Part shown: positions 3,939-57,883 of the stretch, piece after piece
Position numbering within the stretch: the stretch's first letter is position 1
Layout: each line of letters starts with the position of its first letter
Source: Patescibacteria group bacterium
Lineage (GTDB): Bacteria > Patescibacteriota > Patescibacteriia > 2-02-FULL-49-11
NCBI GenBank assembly: GCA_040757655.1
Contig: JBFLWV010000058.1
Location: 1-63,288 of the forward strand
Direction of reading: 5' to 3'
Length of the DNA: 63,288 nt
Made by a program: the position numbers and the translations under genes
The notes under the pieces: generated by a model
Told to the model about the DNA's origin: nothing
Database searches by the model: none
What the model saw: the letters and a program-made list of their open reading frames with translations, nothing else

Positions 3939-4334
3939 TTACCGTGTGTAGCCCAAGCATTCTAATTCTTGTTCAATTTCGGTGGGAAGTGGAATTGCTT
4001 CCCTCACGGGGCTTTTACCCGGATAGCGCCACGCGGTAATGACGGTGCGTGTCCCTTTCTTATCTTGATACATCACCCAGATTTCCTGCATAGTCGCAGA
4101 TTTATGCAGATTAGACGCAGATTTACGCAGAGCGTGCTGTGTGTGTTTATATTTAGTGATTGATTGCATAGCTGCAATAGTGTTAGGCGCTATGCCCTTT
4201 TCTATGCGTGTGGGATATTTTATTACGCGTTTTATGCGGGATTCACTCAACCCATAGAAGCGCATTTTTTCCTTCACGTGCAGGGTCCATTTGAGGGTTG
4301 GTGGTTGGGGAAGGGGGTTGGTCTTTGTTTGCAT
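3939..4334 (-). CDS. hypothetical small protein (possibly DUF4258-like) with repeat-derived insert
   Basis: 131-aa ORF starting at ATG 4334. The internal HALRKSASNLHKSAT segment is encoded by the tandem CGCAGAT-type repeat at 4093-4134. Confidence 0.4.
   Translation of the reverse strand: MQTKTNPLPQPPTLKWTLHVKEKMRFYGLSESRIKRVIKYPTRIEKGIAPNTIAAMQSITKYKHTQHALRKSASNLHKSATMQEIWVMYQDKKGTRTVITAWRYPGKSPVREAIPLPTEIEQELECLGYTR
4093..4134 (-). repeat. in-frame CGCAGAT-type repeat in hypothetical CDS
   Basis: GTCGCAGATTTATGCAGATTAGACGCAGATTTACGCAGAGCG. Confidence 0.85.
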
Positions 4335-11975: not shown

Positions 11976-13535
11976 TCATAGGACTGACATAGAGAGCGGT
12001 GTCTTGAGATGATGGTCGGTGGTCTGTTGGAAGGCTTTACCCGCATGGAAGAGTCGGGATTCACTAAACGGCGGGGCAATGAGCTGCAATCCTATCGGAA
12101 GATTTGATTGCGGATCGTCAGGTGCAGGAGCAAAGCCGCAGGGGAGGGAGATAGCCGGCAATCCTGCGACGTTCACCGCGACCGTGAAGATATCTGCCAG
12201 ATACATAGCCAAGGGGTCATTTGCCTTTTCCCCGATTTTGAATGCCACGGTAGGCGAAGTGGGGCAGGCGATGAGGTCCACCTCTTTGAACGCCTGGTTA
12301 AAATCATCCCGAATGAGCGTACGCATTTGCTGCGCTTTTTTGTAATAGGCATCGTAGTAGCCGGCGGAGAGCGCATAGGTGCCGATCATTATACGGCGTT
12401 TGGATTCAGGCCCGAGTCCCCGCGTGCGCATGTTTTCATACCACTCAATCAACGCGGACTGACGCGGAACGTCACGCTTGCCTGTATCGCGGAAGGACGC
12501 GGAAGTGTCTGCGCCATTCACACCGCCGTACCTCATCCCATCATACCGCGCAAGATTTGAAGAAACCTCGGAAGGGACGAGAATATAATAAGTGGAAAGC
12601 GCGAGGGGTGCATGGGGGAGCGGAATCATTGTGACTACCGCTCCCAAACCCTCCAATTCCTCTATAGCTTCCCGTACGCATATTTTGACGCCCTCTTCAA
12701 TTCCTTCTGCATCCCAGTTTTTGCCGACATATTCTACGGGGATGCCTATTTTGAGGCCTTTACACCCTCTCTCCGCCAGCGGGCGGGTCTCCCCCTTATT
12801 AGGGGGAGAACCTATTGAGGTGGCGTCGCGCGGGTCATTGCCTTGTATCACGTTGAACACGGTTTCTGCTTCTTCAACAGTGCGGCTGAATACGCCTATC
12901 TGGTCAAGCGATGACGCCATGGCAATGAGGCCGTAGCGCGATATGCTGCCGTAGGTACAGTGCAGTCCCACTAAGCCGCAAAGTGAAGCAGGCTGGCGGA
13001 TGGATCCTCCGGTATCGCTTCCCAACGCGTAGGGCGCGAGTCCTGCGGCAACCGCAACCGCAGAGCCGCCTGATGATCCGCCAGGCACGCGTGTGGCATC
13101 CCAAGGATTTTTTACCGAGCCAAAAGCAGAGTTTTCATTTGACGCGCCCATGGCAAATTCGTCACAATTGGTTTTTCCCAGGAGGACGTATCCTTCTTCT
13201 TGTAGCTTCTCAATCACGGTCGCGTCATAAGGCGGCGTGTAGTGTTCCAGTATTTTTGCACTTGCTGTAGTGCGGATGCCTTTAGTGATAATAACGTCTT
13301 TCACTGCCGCAGGAACGCCAGTTAGGGATTTAAGGGGAAGACCCTGTGCAATCTGGTTATCCACTTCTTGCGCGGAAGCTAATGCTTCTTTCTCTGTAAT
13401 AGTGAGGAACGCGTTCAGTGCAGGATTATATTTCTTAATCCGTCCAAGATATTCTTGCGCAAGCTCACGAGCAGAGAAGTCTTTATGGAGGAGACCTTCG
13501 TGAATTTTTCCTATTGTCAAATTCTCTATCATCAT
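11976..13535 (-). CDS. gatA: Glu/Asp-tRNA amidotransferase subunit A
   Basis: Amidase signature GGSSGGSAVAVAAG. N-terminus ELAQEYLGRIKKYNPALNAF. ATG at 13535 preferred over TTG at 13550. Confidence 0.9.
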   Translation of the reverse strand: MMIENLTIGKIHEGLLHKDFSARELAQEYLGRIKKYNPALNAFLTITEKEALASAQEVDNQIAQGLPLKSLTGVPAAVKDVIITKGIRTTASAKILEHYTPPYDATVIEKLQEEGYVLLGKTNCDEFAMGASNENSAFGSVKNPWDATRVPGGSSGGSAVAVAAGLAPYALGSDTGGSIRQPASLCGLVGLHCTYGSISRYGLIAMASSLDQIGVFSRTVEEAETVFNVIQGNDPRDATSIGSPPNKGETRPLAERGCKGLKIGIPVEYVGKNWDAEGIEEGVKICVREAIEELEGLGAVVTMIPLPHAPLALSTYYILVPSEVSSNLARYDGMRYGGVNGADTSASFRDTGKRDVPRQSALIEWYENMRTRGLGPESKRRIMIGTYALSAGYYDAYYKKAQQMRTLIRDDFNQAFKEVDLIACPTSPTVAFKIGEKANDPLAMYLADIFTVAVNVAGLPAISLPCGFAPAPDDPQSNLPIGLQLIAPPFSESRLFHAGKAFQQTTDHHLKTPLSMSVL

Positions 13536-13685
13536 AGAAAAAATTTTCAATGCCTAAAGTCCAAAAATTTTCAATGCTCAATTTTCAATTTCCAAAGAAT
13601 GTCACAATGACTCAATTTTCAAAAGTTTGGTAATTGATTCATTGGGAATTGATTGAAAATTGGTATTTGAAAATTGAAAATTCGT
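13536..13685. repeat. low-complexity inverted repeat between gatC and gatA
   Basis: TTTTCAATG/TTTCAATTTCC words on the left are mirrored by CATTGGGAATTGATTGAAAATTGG...GAAAATTGAAAA on the right. Confidence 0.7.
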
Positions 13686-31606: not shown

Positions 31607-32113
31607 CTACCGTTTTGGCTTGCGGTAGCCGATGCCGTGGAGTCCGATGGTCGCCAGGACGGAATAGGCCATTAGCCTTAACGGTCCACGGGTCCACCAA
31701 CCGTCGGAGTTCCGATCGAACGGCACCCAGCCGGTGGGAACGATTTCCACATCGAATCCTTTGCGCCGCAGAAGCCGGGCACAGTAGAAGCGGTGGAATG
31801 GGTGCGCAACGAGACGGACTTCAGTGACTCCTTTCTCTTGAAGGAAGGAGTTAGCCCACCCGATTACCTCCTCCGTGTCGATATATCCTCTGGAGGAGAT
31901 GGTGAGGTCCTCCAGCGTTAAGATGCATTGATCCAATGGTGACTGGATCACGACGAGATCTTCCACCCATTGCCATGCAACCTCGTCAATAATTTTTCCA
32001 AGAGCTTCATTGGCCGCGCCAGGGCCATACTCAAGGGAACCCCCGAATGGAAAACCAATTATTGCTTTCACTTTTTTCCCTTTCGTTTTATGAATAGTTT
32101 TATGAATTGTCAA
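31607..32113 (-). CDS. DUF218/YdcF-like protein
   Basis: YIDTEEVIGWANSFLQEKGVTEVRLVAHPFHRFYCARLLRRKGFDV resembles the DUF218 core. The ORF starts with TTG at 32113; a GTG at 32071 with an upstream AAAGGGA is an alternative start. Confidence 0.45.
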   Translation of the reverse strand: MTIHKTIHKTKGKKVKAIIGFPFGGSLEYGPGAANEALGKIIDEVAWQWVEDLVVIQSPLDQCILTLEDLTISSRGYIDTEEVIGWANSFLQEKGVTEVRLVAHPFHRFYCARLLRRKGFDVEIVPTGWVPFDRNSDGWWTRGPLRLMAYSVLATIGLHGIGYRKPKR

Positions 32114-32196: not shown

Positions 32197-32280
32197 CTCG
32201 CCTCCTGACACCAGGAGGCGAGCCTCTCCCTTTTTAGGGAGAGGGACGCGGCAAAAATAAAACCCTCCTTGAGTGGAGGG
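32197..32280 (-). terminator. three consecutive GC-rich hairpins downstream of the GT2 gene
   Basis: CCCTCC-ttgagt-GGAGGG (32263-32280, followed by a T-rich run on the minus strand), CCTCTCCCT-tttt-AGGGAGAGG (32223-32244), and CTCGCCTCCTG-acac-CAGGAGGCGAG (32197-32222). Confidence 0.65.
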
Positions 32281-32307: not shown

Positions 32308-33267
32308 TCAAAGAGAAGTGGGATTCTTCCTATGATTGTTGATGATCTCGCGGGTGATGGAGCGGGGACGCTGTTTCACTTCCTCGAAAATTTTTGCGAG
32401 ATACTCGGCGATGACTCCAAGGGAGAGGAGCTGGATCGCGCCAAGGAAGAGGATGACGATAAGGGTGGTCAAAAATCCGTGCGGTGCAGGATAGAAAAAT
32501 GCGAGAATCACATAGATAAGGATTGCGAGCCCGGCAAATCCTGTCACCACCAGCGCGATAAAGGAAATCCATTCCAAGGGCAGGTAGGAAAACGAGAAGA
32601 TCGCGCGTTTTGCCCAGCGCAGGTTTTTCCAAAAGCTATTAGTTGATTTTCCCCAATAGCGTTCTGGCCGTACGTACTCTGTGCCAGTTTGTTTAAACCC
32701 TACCCATGCACGCAGTCCCCGCAAGAGCCGGTCGCGCTCTGGCAGTGCATTCATCCAGTCCACTGCCCTGCGGTCAATAAGGGAAAATTCTCCCGCATCT
32801 ACGGGCACTTTCATGTAGGAGAGTTTGTTAAAGAGGACATAGAACTGGTGATAGAGCCATTCATTGATTCTTCCCATACTTTGTTCGCGACGGCGACGCA
32901 CGCCATAAACCACTTCCCAACCTTGAAGCCATTTCTCAACAAACTGCGGGATGATTTCAGGAGGGTCCTGCAGGTCGCCGTCTAAAAGAATGACCGCATC
33001 GCCCAGCGCTTGTACCATACCGGCCGTGAATGCTGCTTGCGCACCAAAGTTGCGTGATTGGATAATCACCGTAAGGTGAGAGTCATATGAGGCAAGCTCG
33101 CGTAGGATTGATTCAGAGTTATCAGGGCTTGCGTCATTCACGTAAATAATTTCCCAGTTCGGCGTGATGTTCGCAAGTGTCCGGGAGAGCCGCTCGTAGA
33201 GTGCTTTAATATTTCCTTCGTCACGGTAGCATACGACTACGGTGGAGAGCATTTTGTCGGTAAGCAT
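32308..33267 (-). CDS. family 2 glycosyltransferase (polyprenyl-phosphate sugar transferase type, two C-terminal TM)
   Basis: VVCYRDEGNI...IIYVNDASPDNS...LLDGDLQDPPE, plus a C-terminal TM pair as in DPM1/ArnC-like enzymes. Confidence 0.85.
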   Translation of the reverse strand: MLTDKMLSTVVVCYRDEGNIKALYERLSRTLANITPNWEIIYVNDASPDNSESILRELASYDSHLTVIIQSRNFGAQAAFTAGMVQALGDAVILLDGDLQDPPEIIPQFVEKWLQGWEVVYGVRRRREQSMGRINEWLYHQFYVLFNKLSYMKVPVDAGEFSLIDRRAVDWMNALPERDRLLRGLRAWVGFKQTGTEYVRPERYWGKSTNSFWKNLRWAKRAIFSFSYLPLEWISFIALVVTGFAGLAILIYVILAFFYPAPHGFLTTLIVILFLGAIQLLSLGVIAEYLAKIFEEVKQRPRSITREIINNHRKNPTSL

Positions 33268-49904: not shown

Positions 49905-51359
49905 ATGATAGTTAAATGGAATAGTATGCGCATCACATTTTACGGCGGCGCGGGCGGGGTGACGGGATCAAAGCATTTGGTTGAAATCGGCGGCGCGCGC
50001 ATCCTGTTTGATTGCGGATTTTTTCAAGGGCACCGCGTAGAGGCGCGGGAGCAGAATGCACGTCTGCCGTTTGATCCTACCACGATTGACGCGGTGGTCT
50101 TGTCGCACGCGCATCTTGACCACTGCGGCATGTTGCCGCTTTTGGTGAAAGGAAGATTCAAGGGTAACATTTATGCGACTGCGGCTACGCGGGATGTGGC
50201 GGAATGGATAATGAAAGACGCGGTACACGTGCAGATGCAGGATATGGTGCATTTACAGCGGCAGCAGTCTCAAGGAACTTCCCTTGCCGAGCCGTTCTAT
50301 ACGTTTGATGATATTGAACAAACGCTTGCACGGTTTGTGGATGTGCCGTATGTGAGAAATACTGGAGAGTGGTTTAATATGCGTGTAGGGGCGAACGGCC
50401 GTTCGCCCGTACAAATGAAATTGTATGACGCCGGGCATATTCTCGGTTCTGCAGTTATAGTGCTCGAGGCTCGGGGTGAGAGCGGCAGGATAGAGCGCGT
50501 GGTGTTTACCGGCGATCTTGGGCGCTGCGGCGCACCGCTCATTCCTGATCCGGAATTTGTGCATGAATCGTCAGAGGTGCTTCTTTTAGAGAGCACCTAT
50601 GGCAATCGCGTGCATGCGGATTTTGCGCAGGCAAAGGAGCGATTAAAGGCAATTATCCACGCGACGTTGGAGAGGCGCGGAAAGCTTGTGGTGCCCGCAT
50701 TCGCGCTCGGCCGCACGCAGGAGCTGCTCTACCTCCTGCACCGATTGACCGATGATAAAGAAATTCCCCGTATTCTCATTTTTGTCGACAGCCCGCTTGC
50801 CGACCGCGTGACAGAAGTGTATAAAAATCATATTGACGATTTTGACATCGAGACCTGGAAAGAATTCGGGAGACGTGGCGATGAGCCACTCGTATTCCGC
50901 AATCTTACCCTGATTCAATCCGTAGAAGAGTCAAAGCGACTGAATATGATGGAGGGGCCATTTATCGTAATTGCCGGATCTGGCATGTGCGAGCATGGGA
51001 GGATCCAGCACCACCTTGCCCGCGCCATCAACGATCCGCGCAACACCATACTCATTACCGGCTTCCAGGCAATAGACACGCTGGGAAGGAGGCTGGTGGA
51101 GGGCGAGAAGAGGGTTAGAATTTATGATGAATTTTTTGAGGTGCGCGCGCGGGTTGAGAAGCTGAATGAATTGTCAGCACATGCCGACCGCAATGAGCTG
51201 CTCGAGTATGCGGAACACGTGAATGGCGTGAAGAATATTTTTTTGGTTCATGGTGAGAAACCTCAAGTGATTGGTCTGCAAACCTTATTTCATGAACATC
51301 ATCCTGACTGGCGGGTGGATATTCCGGAGAGAGGGCAATTGTTTAACGTTGAGAAATAA
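49905..51359 (+). CDS. MBL-fold beta-CASP RNA-metabolising hydrolase (CPSF/RNase J-like)
   Basis: HAHLDHCG, LYDAGHILGSA, LLESTYGNR, GRTQELL, SAHADRNELL. An alternative ATG lies at 49926. Confidence 0.8.
   Translation: MIVKWNSMRITFYGGAGGVTGSKHLVEIGGARILFDCGFFQGHRVEAREQNARLPFDPTTIDAVVLSHAHLDHCGMLPLLVKGRFKGNIYATAATRDVAEWIMKDAVHVQMQDMVHLQRQQSQGTSLAEPFYTFDDIEQTLARFVDVPYVRNTGEWFNMRVGANGRSPVQMKLYDAGHILGSAVIVLEARGESGRIERVVFTGDLGRCGAPLIPDPEFVHESSEVLLLESTYGNRVHADFAQAKERLKAIIHATLERRGKLVVPAFALGRTQELLYLLHRLTDDKEIPRILIFVDSPLADRVTEVYKNHIDDFDIETWKEFGRRGDEPLVFRNLTLIQSVEESKRLNMMEGPFIVIAGSGMCEHGRIQHHLARAINDPRNTILITGFQAIDTLGRRLVEGEKRVRIYDEFFEVRARVEKLNELSAHADRNELLEYAEHVNGVKNIFLVHGEKPQVIGLQTLFHEHHPDWRVDIPERGQLFNVEK
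50385..50412. repeat. perfect 20-bp palindrome GGGCGAACGGCCGTTCGCCC (GTA-flanked) inside the beta-CASP hydrolase CDS
   Basis: GTAGGGGCGAACGGCCGTTCGCCCGTAC, palindrome core 50389-50408. Translated VGANGRSPV. Confidence 0.95.
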
Positions 51360-55682: not shown

Positions 55683-56441
55683 ATGGCCACTCTTTATATA
55701 GTTGCAACCCCGATAGGAAATTTAAGCGATATTACCATTCGCGCCCTAGAAATCTTACGGCGCGTTTCTGTTGTGTATGGCGAAGATACGCGCGTGACGA
55801 GAAAGCTCTTTGAGCGGCACGGGATTACGACGCTTTTAAGGAGTTATCATCAGCATTCGTCGAGTCAAAAGGTTAAAGAAGTGATTGAGTCTCTACAACA
55901 TGGCGATGTGGCGCTCGTGACTGATGCAGGGACACCGGGAGTCGCGGATCCGGGAAATGAATTGGTCGCCCAATTAGTATGGGCGAACGGCCGTTCGCCC
56001 GTACTTTCAGAGATCAAAATCGTACCTATCCCCGGGCCTTCAGCAGTGATGGCAGCGGCAAGCGTGTGTGGGTTCAATATGAGCGCGTTTACGTTCTTAG
56101 GATATGTGCCAAAGAAGAAAGGACGGCAGAAATTTTTTAGGGCGATTGCCGAAAGCGATATTCCTGTGACACTCTATGAAACGCCGCACAGAATCATACG
56201 AACTTTGGAAGAATTACACGGAACAATCGTTGAGTGGGTTAACTCTACCCAACCTCCTCTTAAGGTAAGAGGAGGAGAAGGAGGAGTTATGAAATATGAG
56301 AGACGGAGACTGGTCGTCTGCCGCGAGCTCACGAAGATTTACGAATCCATCTACCGCGGCACGATTGAGGAAGTCCTTGCGCAGGTTCGTAGAGATCCCA
56401 TGAGGGGAGAATATGTAGTGATAATTGATGGGAATACATGA
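55683..56441 (+). CDS. rsmI: 16S rRNA (cytidine1402-2'-O)-methyltransferase
   Basis: LYIVATPIGNLSDITIRALEIL...GEDTRVTRKL...VTDAGTPGVADPG. Confidence 0.85.
   Translation: MATLYIVATPIGNLSDITIRALEILRRVSVVYGEDTRVTRKLFERHGITTLLRSYHQHSSSQKVKEVIESLQHGDVALVTDAGTPGVADPGNELVAQLVWANGRSPVLSEIKIVPIPGPSAVMAAASVCGFNMSAFTFLGYVPKKKGRQKFFRAIAESDIPVTLYETPHRIIRTLEELHGTIVEWVNSTQPPLKVRGGEGGVMKYERRRLVVCRELTKIYESIYRGTIEEVLAQVRRDPMRGEYVVIIDGNT
55977..56004. repeat. same 20-bp palindrome inside rsmI CDS
   Basis: GTATGGGCGAACGGCCGTTCGCCCGTAC, core 55981-56000. Translated VWANGRSPV. Confidence 0.95.
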
Positions 56442-57883
56442 GCAAGTTCTACATCACCACCACGCTTCCCTATGTGAATGCTGATCCGCATATCGGGTTT
56501 GCGCTGGAAATCGTGCAGGCCGACGTGATTGCGCGGTGGCACCGAAGGGTGGGGGATGAGGTTTTTTTCAATACCGGCACTGACGAGCATGGCTTGAAGA
56601 TTTACCGCGGCGCGCAAGGAGAGGGAATGGATCCGAAAGCATACGCGGATCTCCATGCAGCGAAGTTTGAGGCACTGAAAACCGCACTCAACCTAAGCTA
56701 TAATAATTTCATACGGACCACTGATCCGCATCATGTGGCGGCTGCGCAGGAATTTTGGCGGCGCTGTGCGGAGAAGGGCGACATTTACAAGAAAAATTAC
56801 CGCATTAAATACTGCGTCGGCTGCGAGCTCGAGAAGACGGAATCGGAGCTTGAGGATGGCCGCTGCCCCCTCCATCCCCATCTTGCGCTGGAACAGGTGG
56901 ATGAGGAGAATTATTTTTTCAGGTATTCGCGTTACCAAGATGCTCTATTGGAATTATATAAGAATAATCCGCAGTTTGTCGTGCCGAAGAACAGAATGCT
57001 CGAGATCGTCAAATTTACCGAGCGGGGGCTGCAGGATTTCAGCATATCGCGGCTTAAATCAAAAATGCCATGGGGCGTGCCTGTGCCGGGCGATGATGCG
57101 CAGGTGATGTATGTGTGGTTTGACGCGCTGGTCAATTATATTTCAGCCCTCGGCTGGCCGGACGACCTCCAGAAGTTCAATGCATTCTGGCCGGGCGTGC
57201 AGGTGGCGGGCAAGGACAACCTGCGCCAGCAGTCGTCCATGTGGCAGGCGATGCTCCTCTCTGCCGGGCTCCCGCCATCCACCCAGATATTGATACACGG
57301 GTTTATCACTTCACGAGGACAAAAAATGTCGAAATCGCTCGGCAATGTGGTGAGCCCGTTTGAGTATGTGGAAAAGTTTGGCGCGGACGCGCTTCGGTAT
57401 TACCTTCTTCGGGAAATTCCCACGCTCGATGACGGCGATTTTACGCATGAGCAGTTCCTCGCGCGCTATAATGCAGACCTTGCCAATGGCCTCGGGAATC
57501 TTGTCCAGCGCGTGAGTACTATGATCGCGAAATATTCAATCAATGTAGGGGCGAACGGCCGTTCGCCCGTACAGAGTGTGTTGAGAAAAGAGATTGATAA
57601 TTGTATTCAGCGATATCAGCTCGATCAAGCATTGGCGGTGATTTGGGAAAAAATCGCTGCCTGCGACAAACGTATTGATAACGAAAAACCGTGGGCATTA
57701 GCAAAGGACACTTCCCAGCATGAAAAGTTAGAAGCTTTGTTGTCTAGCTTGGTTGCCGACCTTCGGGAAATAGGCGTTGCGCTTTTGCCCTTCCTTCCCT
57801 GCACTGCGGAGAGTATACTGAAGGTGGTGGGTGCGGAAAAGATTGTGCCACCCGCAAAGCCGCTGTTTCCGAGAGAAACATAA
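56438..57883 (+). CDS. metG: methionyl-tRNA synthetase (short form)
   Basis: YITTTLPYVNADPHIGF (HIGH-type), zinc knuckle CVGCE...CPLH, KMSKSLGN. Confidence 0.9.
   Translation: MSKFYITTTLPYVNADPHIGFALEIVQADVIARWHRRVGDEVFFNTGTDEHGLKIYRGAQGEGMDPKAYADLHAAKFEALKTALNLSYNNFIRTTDPHHVAAAQEFWRRCAEKGDIYKKNYRIKYCVGCELEKTESELEDGRCPLHPHLALEQVDEENYFFRYSRYQDALLELYKNNPQFVVPKNRMLEIVKFTERGLQDFSISRLKSKMPWGVPVPGDDAQVMYVWFDALVNYISALGWPDDLQKFNAFWPGVQVAGKDNLRQQSSMWQAMLLSAGLPPSTQILIHGFITSRGQKMSKSLGNVVSPFEYVEKFGADALRYYLLREIPTLDDGDFTHEQFLARYNADLANGLGNLVQRVSTMIAKYSINVGANGRSPVQSVLRKEIDNCIQRYQLDQALAVIWEKIAACDKRIDNEKPWALAKDTSQHEKLEALLSSLVADLREIGVALLPFLPCTAESILKVVGAEKIVPPAKPLFPRET
57545..57572. repeat. same 20-bp palindrome inside metG CDS
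   Basis: GTAGGGGCGAACGGCCGTTCGCCCGTAC, core 57549-57568. Translated VGANGRSPV. Confidence 0.95.

Follow-up and report, generated by a model that had tools for sequence, protein, structure and literature searches.

Contig JBFLWV010000058.1 of a Patescibacteria group bacterium, analysed here over its whole length of 63,288 nt (the window) and most closely related, among named organisms, to a Candidatus Uhrbacteria metagenome-assembled genome (MAG), raises the question of how one short palindrome came to be read in the same frame within three unrelated housekeeping genes. The 20-mer GGGCGAACGGCCGTTCGCCC is its own reverse complement, and exact copies were found at positions 50389-50408, 55981-56000 and 57549-57568 against an expectation of 0, which confirmed the positions given in a preliminary description of this DNA. 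No further match with up to 3 mismatches was present in the 63,288-nt window, and 100 dinucleotide-preserving shuffles of the window yielded 0 matches. The copies are spaced 5592 and 1568 nt apart, corresponding to a density of 1 per 21 kb. The three elements, in our view, are probably GTAG-tagged, double-foot repetitive extragenic palindromic (REP) sequences, spread by a REP-associated tyrosine transposase (RAYT) and lying in frame in genes.

The element, whose pattern we write as GTNNGGGCGAACGGCCGTTCGCCCNTAC, comprises a 5′ GTAG guide tetranucleotide, a 20-nt G+C-rich palindrome with GGGC/GCCC at the base of the stem, and a mirrored 3′ foot, which is CTAC in most genomes and GTAC in this lineage of the candidate phyla radiation (CPR). 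As had been described, each copy is a 28-nt unit with GTA(G/T)...GTAC flanks; copies 1 and 3 are identical in sequence (GTAG...GTAC), copy 2 has GTAT...GTAC, and all three agree at 27/28 nt. Pairing continues for one base more at either end (T...A or A...T), which brings the arms to 15 nt, 93% of which are complementary. The stem, GGGCGAAC/GTTCGCCC with a GGCC loop, fits what is expected of a GTAG REP, namely complete pairing in a G+C-rich basal stem that runs for 7-20 nt and has G or C at three or more of its first four bases, closed by a short loop. GTAG REPs also have a GT[AG]G tetranucleotide placed 0-2 nt 5′ to the foot of the hairpin; in copies 1 and 3 GTAG directly adjoins the foot, and copy 2 carries GTAT, a variant that was also seen elsewhere. 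Folded as single-stranded DNA (ssDNA), with DNA folding, the hairpin of copies 1 and 3 had a free energy (dG) of −12.1 kcal/mol (z −4.9) and that of copy 2 a dG of −12.0 kcal/mol (z −4.1), and the canonical GTAG/CTAC form folded at −13.4 kcal/mol (z −5.1). It is always the sense, G-rich strand that carries the GTAG foot in the window. The GC skew is positive over the entire contig and gene orientation flips from minus to plus at ~37.7 kb, the three copies all lying inside 7.2 kb of the plus-strand block.

The palindrome was not confined to this contig. A scan for the exact 20-mer in one genome per species (596 Gb) gave at least 128 copies on at least 119 contigs of ~15 phyla, where by our estimate ~0.5 would be expected by chance; these counts, and those that follow for copies outside the window, hold among the matches listed. 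Many belonged to Cyanobacteriota, including the isolates Planktothrix PCC 11201, Nostoc LEGE 06077 and Cuspidothrix CHARLIE-1 as well as Okeania. Further matches came from Chloroflexota, Nitrospirota, Planctomycetota (including anammox bacteria), Omnitrophota, WOR-3, Bipolaricaulota, Desulfobacterota, Gemmatimonadota, Calditrichota, Bacteroidota/Ignavibacteria, Acidobacteriota, Spirochaetota, Pseudomonadota MAGs and Melainabacteria, and the CPR were represented by a Candidatus Falkowbacteria MAG. GTAG made up 143/248 feet, GTAG/CTAC was the commonest foot pair (51/124 copies), and C was present at +1 in 92/124. A weak T at −5 and a weak A at +5 were the outermost signals, and since conservation stops at ±5, the unit is a palindrome of 28-30 nt that is scattered over contexts unrelated to one another. 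Co-variation was seen in some foot pairs (GCAG/CTGC, GTAT/ATAC and GTCG/CGAC). The GTAG/GTAC form recurred in several cyanobacteria, and the GTAC foot was present in every CPR copy. By a crude criterion based on open reading frames (ORFs), ~96/128 copies were extragenic or at gene ends, and Pfam-confirmed hosts of an in-frame 28-mer elsewhere were RibD, CobA/HemD, MurD, AcrB, ArgRS and an Eco57I-type methylase. The earlier idea of in-frame colonisation of ORFs by a small hairpin agrees with this spread of the 28-mer across many phyla, and with CPR sites that differ between relatives, one of them being empty. Carriage by phages was rejected as the cause of the spread, since a scan of viral contigs gave just 2 matches to the element. 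A literature search for the sequence returned no paper containing the 20-mer.

In other genomes the element was found beside or within RAYT genes, where it is also read VGANGRSPL. When a RAYT hidden Markov model (HMM), built from the sequences of PMC6006769 Additional file 5, was run on the six-frame ORFs of the window and of 119 loci, five ORFs at the element were recognized among the 119 loci (L067, L069, L011, L102 and L006), and 4/5 passed the Pfam Y1_Tnp threshold. The proteins of L067 (WOR-3) and of L069 and L011 (both Syntrophaceae) carry MPNH[IL]H ... WQRN[YF][YW]E ... YIxNNP, the signature of RAYT subclass 2.4, whose published motifs are NH[IFV]H, WQ and YIxNNP (PMC6006769). At a further locus, L158, a RAYT gene is closely preceded by an inverted pair of single-foot exact 20-mers, and a third copy lies 9.6 kb off; this is the classical REP/RAYT arrangement. 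Scanning metagenomes with an alignment of these RAYTs retrieved at least 581 relatives, and of the 80 that were retained, 54 loci carry a 27-29-nt GTAG-GGGC-N12-GCCC-CTAC, in 47/80 inside the RAYT match itself. The central 12 nt are lineage-specific and always palindromic at these loci (GATTCGCGAATC, AATTCATGAATT, ACGGCATGCCGT, GCAAGGCCTTGC, GACCGGCCGGTC and others). The window element is thus a single allele within a large REP superfamily that has its cognate HUH nuclease. A hairpin-binding transposase, which the preliminary description had offered as a possible recogniser, probably does recognize the element, given that the 28-mer flanks or sits in Y1_Tnp/RAYT genes elsewhere.

Each window copy lies in a plus-strand ORF, with GTA as a codon, and is read V-(G/W)-A-N-G-R-S-P-V; the ORF translations bore out the shared phase in the beta-CASP hydrolase, rsmI and metG. 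It had further been stated that the element has no stop in any frame, and that the phase is consequently not forced by stop avoidance. The first statement holds for the 20-nt core but not for copies 1 and 3, which together with their GTAG foot carry TAG in the +2 phase. The second did not stand, because TAG closes one phase and the two others are both in use, at ~60:40 in other genomes. Copies well inside long ORFs elsewhere were read as VGANGRSPL in 19 cases, as RGERPFAPT in 9 and as GRTAVRPY in 3, the last reading being possible solely with a non-GTAG foot. Inside RAYT genes, the 47 in-gene REPs were distributed over the open phases at 27:20, with 0 in the TAG phase; the 20 use the open GT-AGG phase (RGxxxxAPT) rather than the TAG phase. 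For all three window copies to be in the VGA phase, the chance probability is ~0.2. The shared phase is weak evidence: stop avoidance together with a mild general bias accounts for it, rather than any phase-specific mechanism.

The comparison of orthologous genes bears on what is conserved. In the orthologous RAYT genes of L128 and L129 the REP GTAGGGGCGACCGGCCGGTCGCCCCTAC occupies the same place, where it is read VGATGRSPL in the former and RGDRPVAPT in the latter, so that within RAYT genes it is the DNA that stays conserved and not the peptide. The beta-CASP proteins of the window and of the CPR locus L121 are 79% identical, with 53% identity at third codon positions and identical codons for 55% of the identical residues; the element itself is identical at 26/27 positions, the best of 467 nine-codon windows, and its 8 synonymously identical codons correspond to p ~0.009. 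Because the window is the outgroup to L120, L121 and L122, this high identity would reflect independent same-codon hits, homogenization between copies, or selection on the hairpin. The GTAC foot was 3′ on the sense strand in 5/5 independent CPR copies (p ~0.03 under random orientation, with small numbers). Strand-specific insertion into single strands is known for the IS200/IS605 family, and such an orientation bias, if it persists beyond these small numbers, would fit a process of that kind.

The identities of the three host genes (Table 1) are backed by the NCBI names and Pfam domains of identical proteins. The product of the first is 100% identical to protein P0241 and has Lactamase_B, Beta-Casp and RMMBL domains, that of the second is 100% identical to P0121 (PF00590), and that of the third is 100% identical to P0001 and matched a PDB MetRS with an E value of 5e-118. 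That every copy is genic, as had been emphasized, is true but unremarkable, as ~88% of the window is coding and three genic copies would be expected with a probability of 0.88^3, or ~0.68.

Within the proteins, the copies lie in loops. In the AlphaFold model of the beta-CASP hydrolase (mean predicted local distance difference test score, pLDDT, 86), the nine REP residues form a coil between two strands, 7 residues ahead of the strand of the motif-3 histidine, and the 10-residue block that holds them has a pLDDT of 74, as compared with 94 and 95 for the adjoining blocks. The RsmI copy lies at the end of a helix in a block with pLDDT 64 (AlphaFold model), following LVAQLV in a loop of variable length (alignment A2), and the metG copy lies in a hypervariable loop that joins the catalytic part to the anticodon-binding part (alignment A1). 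The expectation of a surface loop was supported by the coil and by the scores in the beta-CASP hydrolase and RsmI. Since the positions are coil or low in pLDDT and the same loops of relatives hold other inserts, the models support the idea that REP copies may survive solely in structurally permissive surface loops.

In related CPR genomes, the same loops of the three proteins are occupied by different palindromic inserts of short length, among them TPSSDGVSRT, AIASGAKQSR...PRNDN, CAGTTTGTCAGTT...AACTGAAAAACTG, CHCERSEAIS and CCCCTCCTTCTAAAGGAGGGG, and the loci of such inserts are the L120 beta-CASP gene, P0247, P0248, rsmI of L123 and L125, and metG of L123 and L124. These protein loops are hot spots for several repeat families.

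Sites in CPR relatives were found filled, empty or decayed. Typical beta-CASP orthologues have a three-residue turn followed by a strand at this position (LPD-VHV, APG-IQI; alignment A3). At the beta-CASP site (site A), where the window has R-[VGANGRSP]-VQM, the orthologue of L122 (80% identical) has MPG-GRF, an empty site, and that of L121 is filled at the same codon by a copy that bears a single substitution (CGT to CAT); L120 and P0248 carry TPSSDGVSRT instead, and P0247 a third insert. We also considered the empty site of L122, GGCGGACGG, as a relic or microhomology target of the REP arm GGCGAACGG, and rejected this, as MPGGRF is the ordinary xPG plus three-residue form of distant orthologues. 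The window site in RsmI lacks the element in the closest relative, L120/L123, and in relatives this loop holds other palindromic inserts. At a second RsmI site (site D, after LEEL) the reverse was observed, with GTAC-core-GTAC read VRANGRSPV in L120/L123 and an empty site in the window. In L125, site D (4076-4127) holds a decayed copy, changed at 5/28 positions and fused to the REP variant GTAGGGGCTGAAAATTTTCAGCCCGTAC, and this tandem pair shows the CPR to harbour more than a single allele of the REP. The variant has the same feet as the ANGRS copy and is read VGAENFQPV.

The MetRS loop holds other small hairpins in relatives, and in the Falkowbacteria ArgRS gene the element is found at residue 69. 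A copy in L124 (6084-6111, GTAGGGACGAACGGCCGTTCGTCCGTAC) has a compensatory A...T double change that leaves the palindrome intact, and a TatD gene takes its stop codon from the TAG in the GTAG foot of this copy. Because the occupied sites differ, one site is empty and some copies are decayed, these comparisons show past mobility of the element in these CPR lineages.

Table 1. Window positions of the three REP copies and of the genes that contain them
Feature	Position	Strand	Description
REP copy 1	50385..50412	+	GTAG-GGGCGAACGGCCGTTCGCCC-GTAC, VGANGRSPV in beta-CASP hydrolase
REP copy 2	55977..56004	+	GTAT-GGGCGAACGGCCGTTCGCCC-GTAC, VWANGRSPV in rsmI
REP copy 3	57545..57572	+	GTAG-GGGCGAACGGCCGTTCGCCC-GTAC, VGANGRSPV in metG
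Host gene 1, metallo-beta-lactamase (MBL)-fold/beta-CASP hydrolase	49926..51359 (ORF opens 49905)	+	477 aa from NCBI start
Host gene 2, rsmI, 16S rRNA (cytidine1402-2′-O)-methyltransferase	55683..56441	+	252 aa
Host gene 3, metG, methionine--tRNA ligase	56438..57883	+	481 aa

How might a REP have reached these genes? The ssDNA hairpin of the REP would be bound by a subclass 2.4 RAYT (TnpA_REP, an HUH-Y1 nuclease of the IS200 superfamily), which is thought to cut and copy the REP. A RAYT encoded elsewhere in the genome, or since lost, may have spread the element; for this genome we infer both the mobilizing enzyme and the mode of movement, copying as against cut-and-paste. Most insertions would hit genes because ~88% of the genome is coding, and the survivors would be those in a tolerant surface loop with the frame kept and the TAG phase avoided. 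Flanking codons may later have been trimmed or remodelled, which we propose as the reason for a net gain below 27 nt. The near-identity of the copies may come from recent or repeated insertion or from homogenization between copies, and the peptide would be a passenger.

Several observations weigh against this account. A clean insertion of 27-30 nt relative to orthologues, which the preliminary description had led us to expect, was not seen: the net gain was +18 nt in the beta-CASP gene, as compared with L122, the closest empty orthologue, some +9 to +15 nt in RsmI, and at most about +6 nt in MetRS, where the element replaces the native loop of the Aquifex aeolicus MetRS (2CSX) with a net gain of about 0. 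With a clean gain of 27-28 nt at 0/3 window sites, simple insertion is undemonstrated; either the flanking loop codons were trimmed later or the loops are too variable to compare. In addition, the window is an outgroup to L120, L121 and L122, yet it has the site-A copy in common only with L121, and two hits at one codon, or loss or replacement, must therefore be supposed. The window 3′ foot is GTAC and not CTAC (3/4 bases match), the foot of copy 2 is GTAT and not GT[AG]G, and the copies are singletons and not REPIN doublets (pairs of inverted REPs). No RAYT/Y1_Tnp ORF was detected by the six-frame HMM search of the 63-kb window, and none of the 80 metagenomic RAYT loci was on a contig assignable to Patescibacteria; the best tetranucleotide correlation between the window and these loci was 0.75, on an uncalibrated baseline. 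A literature search for RAYTs in Patescibacteria gave no relevant match. To our knowledge, RAYT-mediated REP transposition has never been directly shown in vivo. It is described as a hypothesis in the literature (PMC6006769, PMC3733652), and binding and cleavage of ssDNA hairpins have been shown for the Escherichia coli TnpA_REP alone (cited in PMC6006769).

The alternative that survives best, which we consider unlikely though far from negligible, is that the copies are inactive relics: they entered long ago or arrived on recombined segments, the RAYT has gone, and their identity is maintained by gene conversion or recent recombination instead of transposition. This would be consistent with the missing RAYT in the window, with a site-A copy common to L121 even though the host proteins are just 79% identical, and with the decay of the L125 RsmI copy, whose 5/28 changes are close to the background rate. 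However, neutral copies of such an age should have decayed, whereas the window copies agree at 27/28 nt and the site-A copy matches that of L121 at 26/27 nt in genes that retain 53% identity at third positions (again the best of the 467 nine-codon windows), so that re-insertion or conversion would still be needed. The relic account overlaps with RAYT-mediated spread, from which it differs mainly in timing.

A broader proposal, which we hold to be speculative and improbable, is that the 28-mer is an allele of a pan-bacterial GTAG-GGGC-N12-GCCC-CTAC superfamily that travels between phyla lying in frame within its own RAYT gene, is actively homogenized or selected at the level of DNA once a new genome has been seeded, and persists in essential genes of ultra-small CPR genomes, in fixed orientation with the GTAG foot on the sense strand, for an ssDNA or RNA hairpin function and not as neutral junk. 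If this were true, CPR would be a natural system for studying REP biology as it acts on coding sequence.

To the related idea that the hairpin is retained in the host genes for a DNA or RNA function, such as host-protein binding or processing, a translational pause, or a recombination or replication signal, we assign a rather low probability. Selection would then act on the DNA and not on the peptide, in agreement with the conservation of DNA beyond coding need in the comparison with L121, the palindrome-preserving A...T change in L124, the co-varying feet (GCAG/CTGC, GTAT/ATAC, GTCG/CGAC) and the differing phases of the L128 and L129 REPs, in which DNA is the conserved entity. However, palindrome-preserving changes are equally expected under RAYT activity or hairpin-templated repair. 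Moreover, close relatives differ in the sites that are occupied, one orthologue is empty, the host genes are unrelated, and the L125 copy has decayed.

It is very unlikely that another hairpin-acting enzyme (an IS200/IS605 TnpA or a different HUH nuclease) or hairpin-templated repair synthesis produced the copies and that the link to RAYTs is coincidental. REP hairpins do resemble the subterminal hairpins of IS200/IS605 elements (PMC6006769), and no RAYT is encoded in the window. Nevertheless, one RAYT lineage is tightly linked to the element, with 47/80 genes containing their own internal variant and centres that co-vary with lineage; the GTAG guide tetranucleotide is a hallmark of RAYTs, and no IS200-like ORF was found in the window either. 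The view that nothing was inserted, the peptide being an ancestral motif or the sequence an assembly or adapter artefact, has nothing but the in-frame reading in its favour and is refuted, as most orthologues lack the peptide, identical DNA occurs in three unrelated genes, and the element is present in the three cyanobacterial isolates named above and in independent ENA, JGI and Logan assemblies.

Taken together with the literature, the novelty implied at the outset has to be narrowed. GTAG REPs, their double-foot form and in-frame genic copies have all been published (PMC6006769, PMC3733652), so the kind of element, its link to RAYTs and the existence of intragenic in-frame REPs are known already, and no new mechanism is added here. 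As far as the literature consulted shows, what is new is the Patescibacteria host, in which the copies seen are all at or inside genes, the exact identity of a 28-mer over ~15 phyla, and conservation at the level of DNA rather than of the peptide. REPs are usually viewed as extragenic and largely species-specific, and a 2025 survey reported REP consensus motifs of low similarity across genomes (PMC12306157); here, one exact 28-mer spans ~15 phyla. The same 28-mer sits in its own transposase gene and, in gene-dense Patescibacteria, persists only in the loops of essential proteins. REPs and other small hairpins inflate and diversify CPR proteins with recurrent peptides such as VGANGRSPL, and such inserts can mislead alignments, phylogenies and the placing of domain boundaries. 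The filled, empty and decayed sites of close relatives offer a tractable setting for questions about REP movement and homogenization by RAYTs.

Other small hairpins were observed in the window. Within rsmI, at 56253-56275, the hairpin CCTCCTCTTAAGGTAAGAGGAGG has a 10-bp stem and a 3-nt loop, is read PPLKVRGGEGG, and is unrelated to the REP. Identical DNA is present at the orthologous place in L120/L123, the segment is absent from most CPR RsmI proteins, and its AlphaFold pLDDT is <50. A G+C-rich hairpin, GGTTCTCCCCCTAATAAGGGGGAGACC, lies at 12785-12812 in the minus-strand ORF 11976-13550 and is read IGSPPNKGETRP. Small hairpins within coding sequence seem to occur generally in this genome. Between the ORFs 31607-32113 and 32308-33267, two adjacent perfect hairpins, CTCGCCTCCTGACACCAGGAGGCGAG and CCTCTCCCTTTTTAGGGAGAGG, occupy the intergenic positions 32197-32244 and are probably terminators.

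Among known systems, several can be separated from the element by size and arrangement. Miniature inverted-repeat transposable elements, which measure 70-300 bp and have terminal inverted repeats that match an insertion sequence and a target-site duplication, were ruled out by a length of 28-30 nt and by the lack of conserved or duplicated flanks beyond ±5. CRISPR repeats, which form regular arrays with spacers of similar length, were ruled out by three copies that are 5592 and 1568 nt apart and all in genes. DNA uptake sequences (~10-12 nt, ~1 per kb, lineage-specific) were likewise ruled out by a density of 1 per 21 kb, a length of 28 nt and a distribution over ~15 phyla.

The Rickettsia palindromic elements (RPEs), to which the window copies had first been likened, are also palindromes in frame in the surface-exposed parts of functional proteins of a reduced genome, and to that extent the analogy is sound. 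In size and host it is not: RPE-1, reportedly the subject of papers by Ogata et al. in 2000 and 2002, is said to be ~100-150 bp long and to encode 30-50 aa, whereas the window element takes up 9 codons and belongs to a family with a cognate HUH nuclease. We know of no link between RPEs and RAYTs. With 28 nt and a Patescibacteria host, identity with RPEs was ruled out, in-frame behaviour alone being common. The SDR4-6 repeats of Nostocaceae, attributed to Elhai et al. in 2008, are reportedly palindromic repeats, mobile and 21-27 nt long, of heterocyst-forming cyanobacteria, the group from which many of the cyanobacterial 20-mer matches come; the likeness drawn here is one of description.

A REPIN consists of two inverted REPs and a short spacer and has been proposed as the replicating unit of REPs (Bertels & Rainey 2011, PMC3116915). 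It belongs to the same REP/RAYT system, and the inverted pair of single-foot 20-mers upstream of the L158 RAYT resembles it, but in the window each copy stands alone, at distances of 5.6 and 1.5 kb and with no partner at up to 3 mismatches, by which REPIN identity was ruled out. The GTAG REP catalogue of Di Nocera et al. (2013, PMC3733652) covers Proteobacteria, Cyanobacteria, Chloroflexi and the PVC group. Dozens of intragenic in-frame GTAG/CGTC REPs were reported in Opitutus terrae, in HrpA, UvrA, FtsY, RF3 and others (PMC3733652, Additional file 3); many read GTA as Val (VGPALAAG, VAGVADP), and their survival was argued to depend on linkers and loops (PMC3733652). Like the window copies, these are short tagged palindromes in frame in genes for known proteins. 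They differ in forming the families GTAG-1 to -24, in large genomes with mostly extragenic copies, and more than half of the intragenic inserts are dimers, whereas the window has singletons, in a reduced genome, of a 28-mer common across phyla.

The closest counterpart is the double-foot REP of TnpA_REP subclass 2.4, whose feet are 5′ GT[AG]G and 3′ C[TC]AC and whose stem base has three G-C pairs (Quentin et al. 2018, PMC6006769), which was reported from Cyanobacteria, Bacteroidetes and scattered phyla (PMC6006769). Patescibacteria are not mentioned as a host in that study. The window copies depart from this form in their 3′ GTAC, in the GTAT of copy 2, in lying all in housekeeping genes and in having no RAYT on the contig. 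They resemble it in the 5′ foot, in the stem base, in a 3′ foot that matches the mirrored form at 3/4 bases and in an occurrence that takes in Cyanobacteria and many other phyla.

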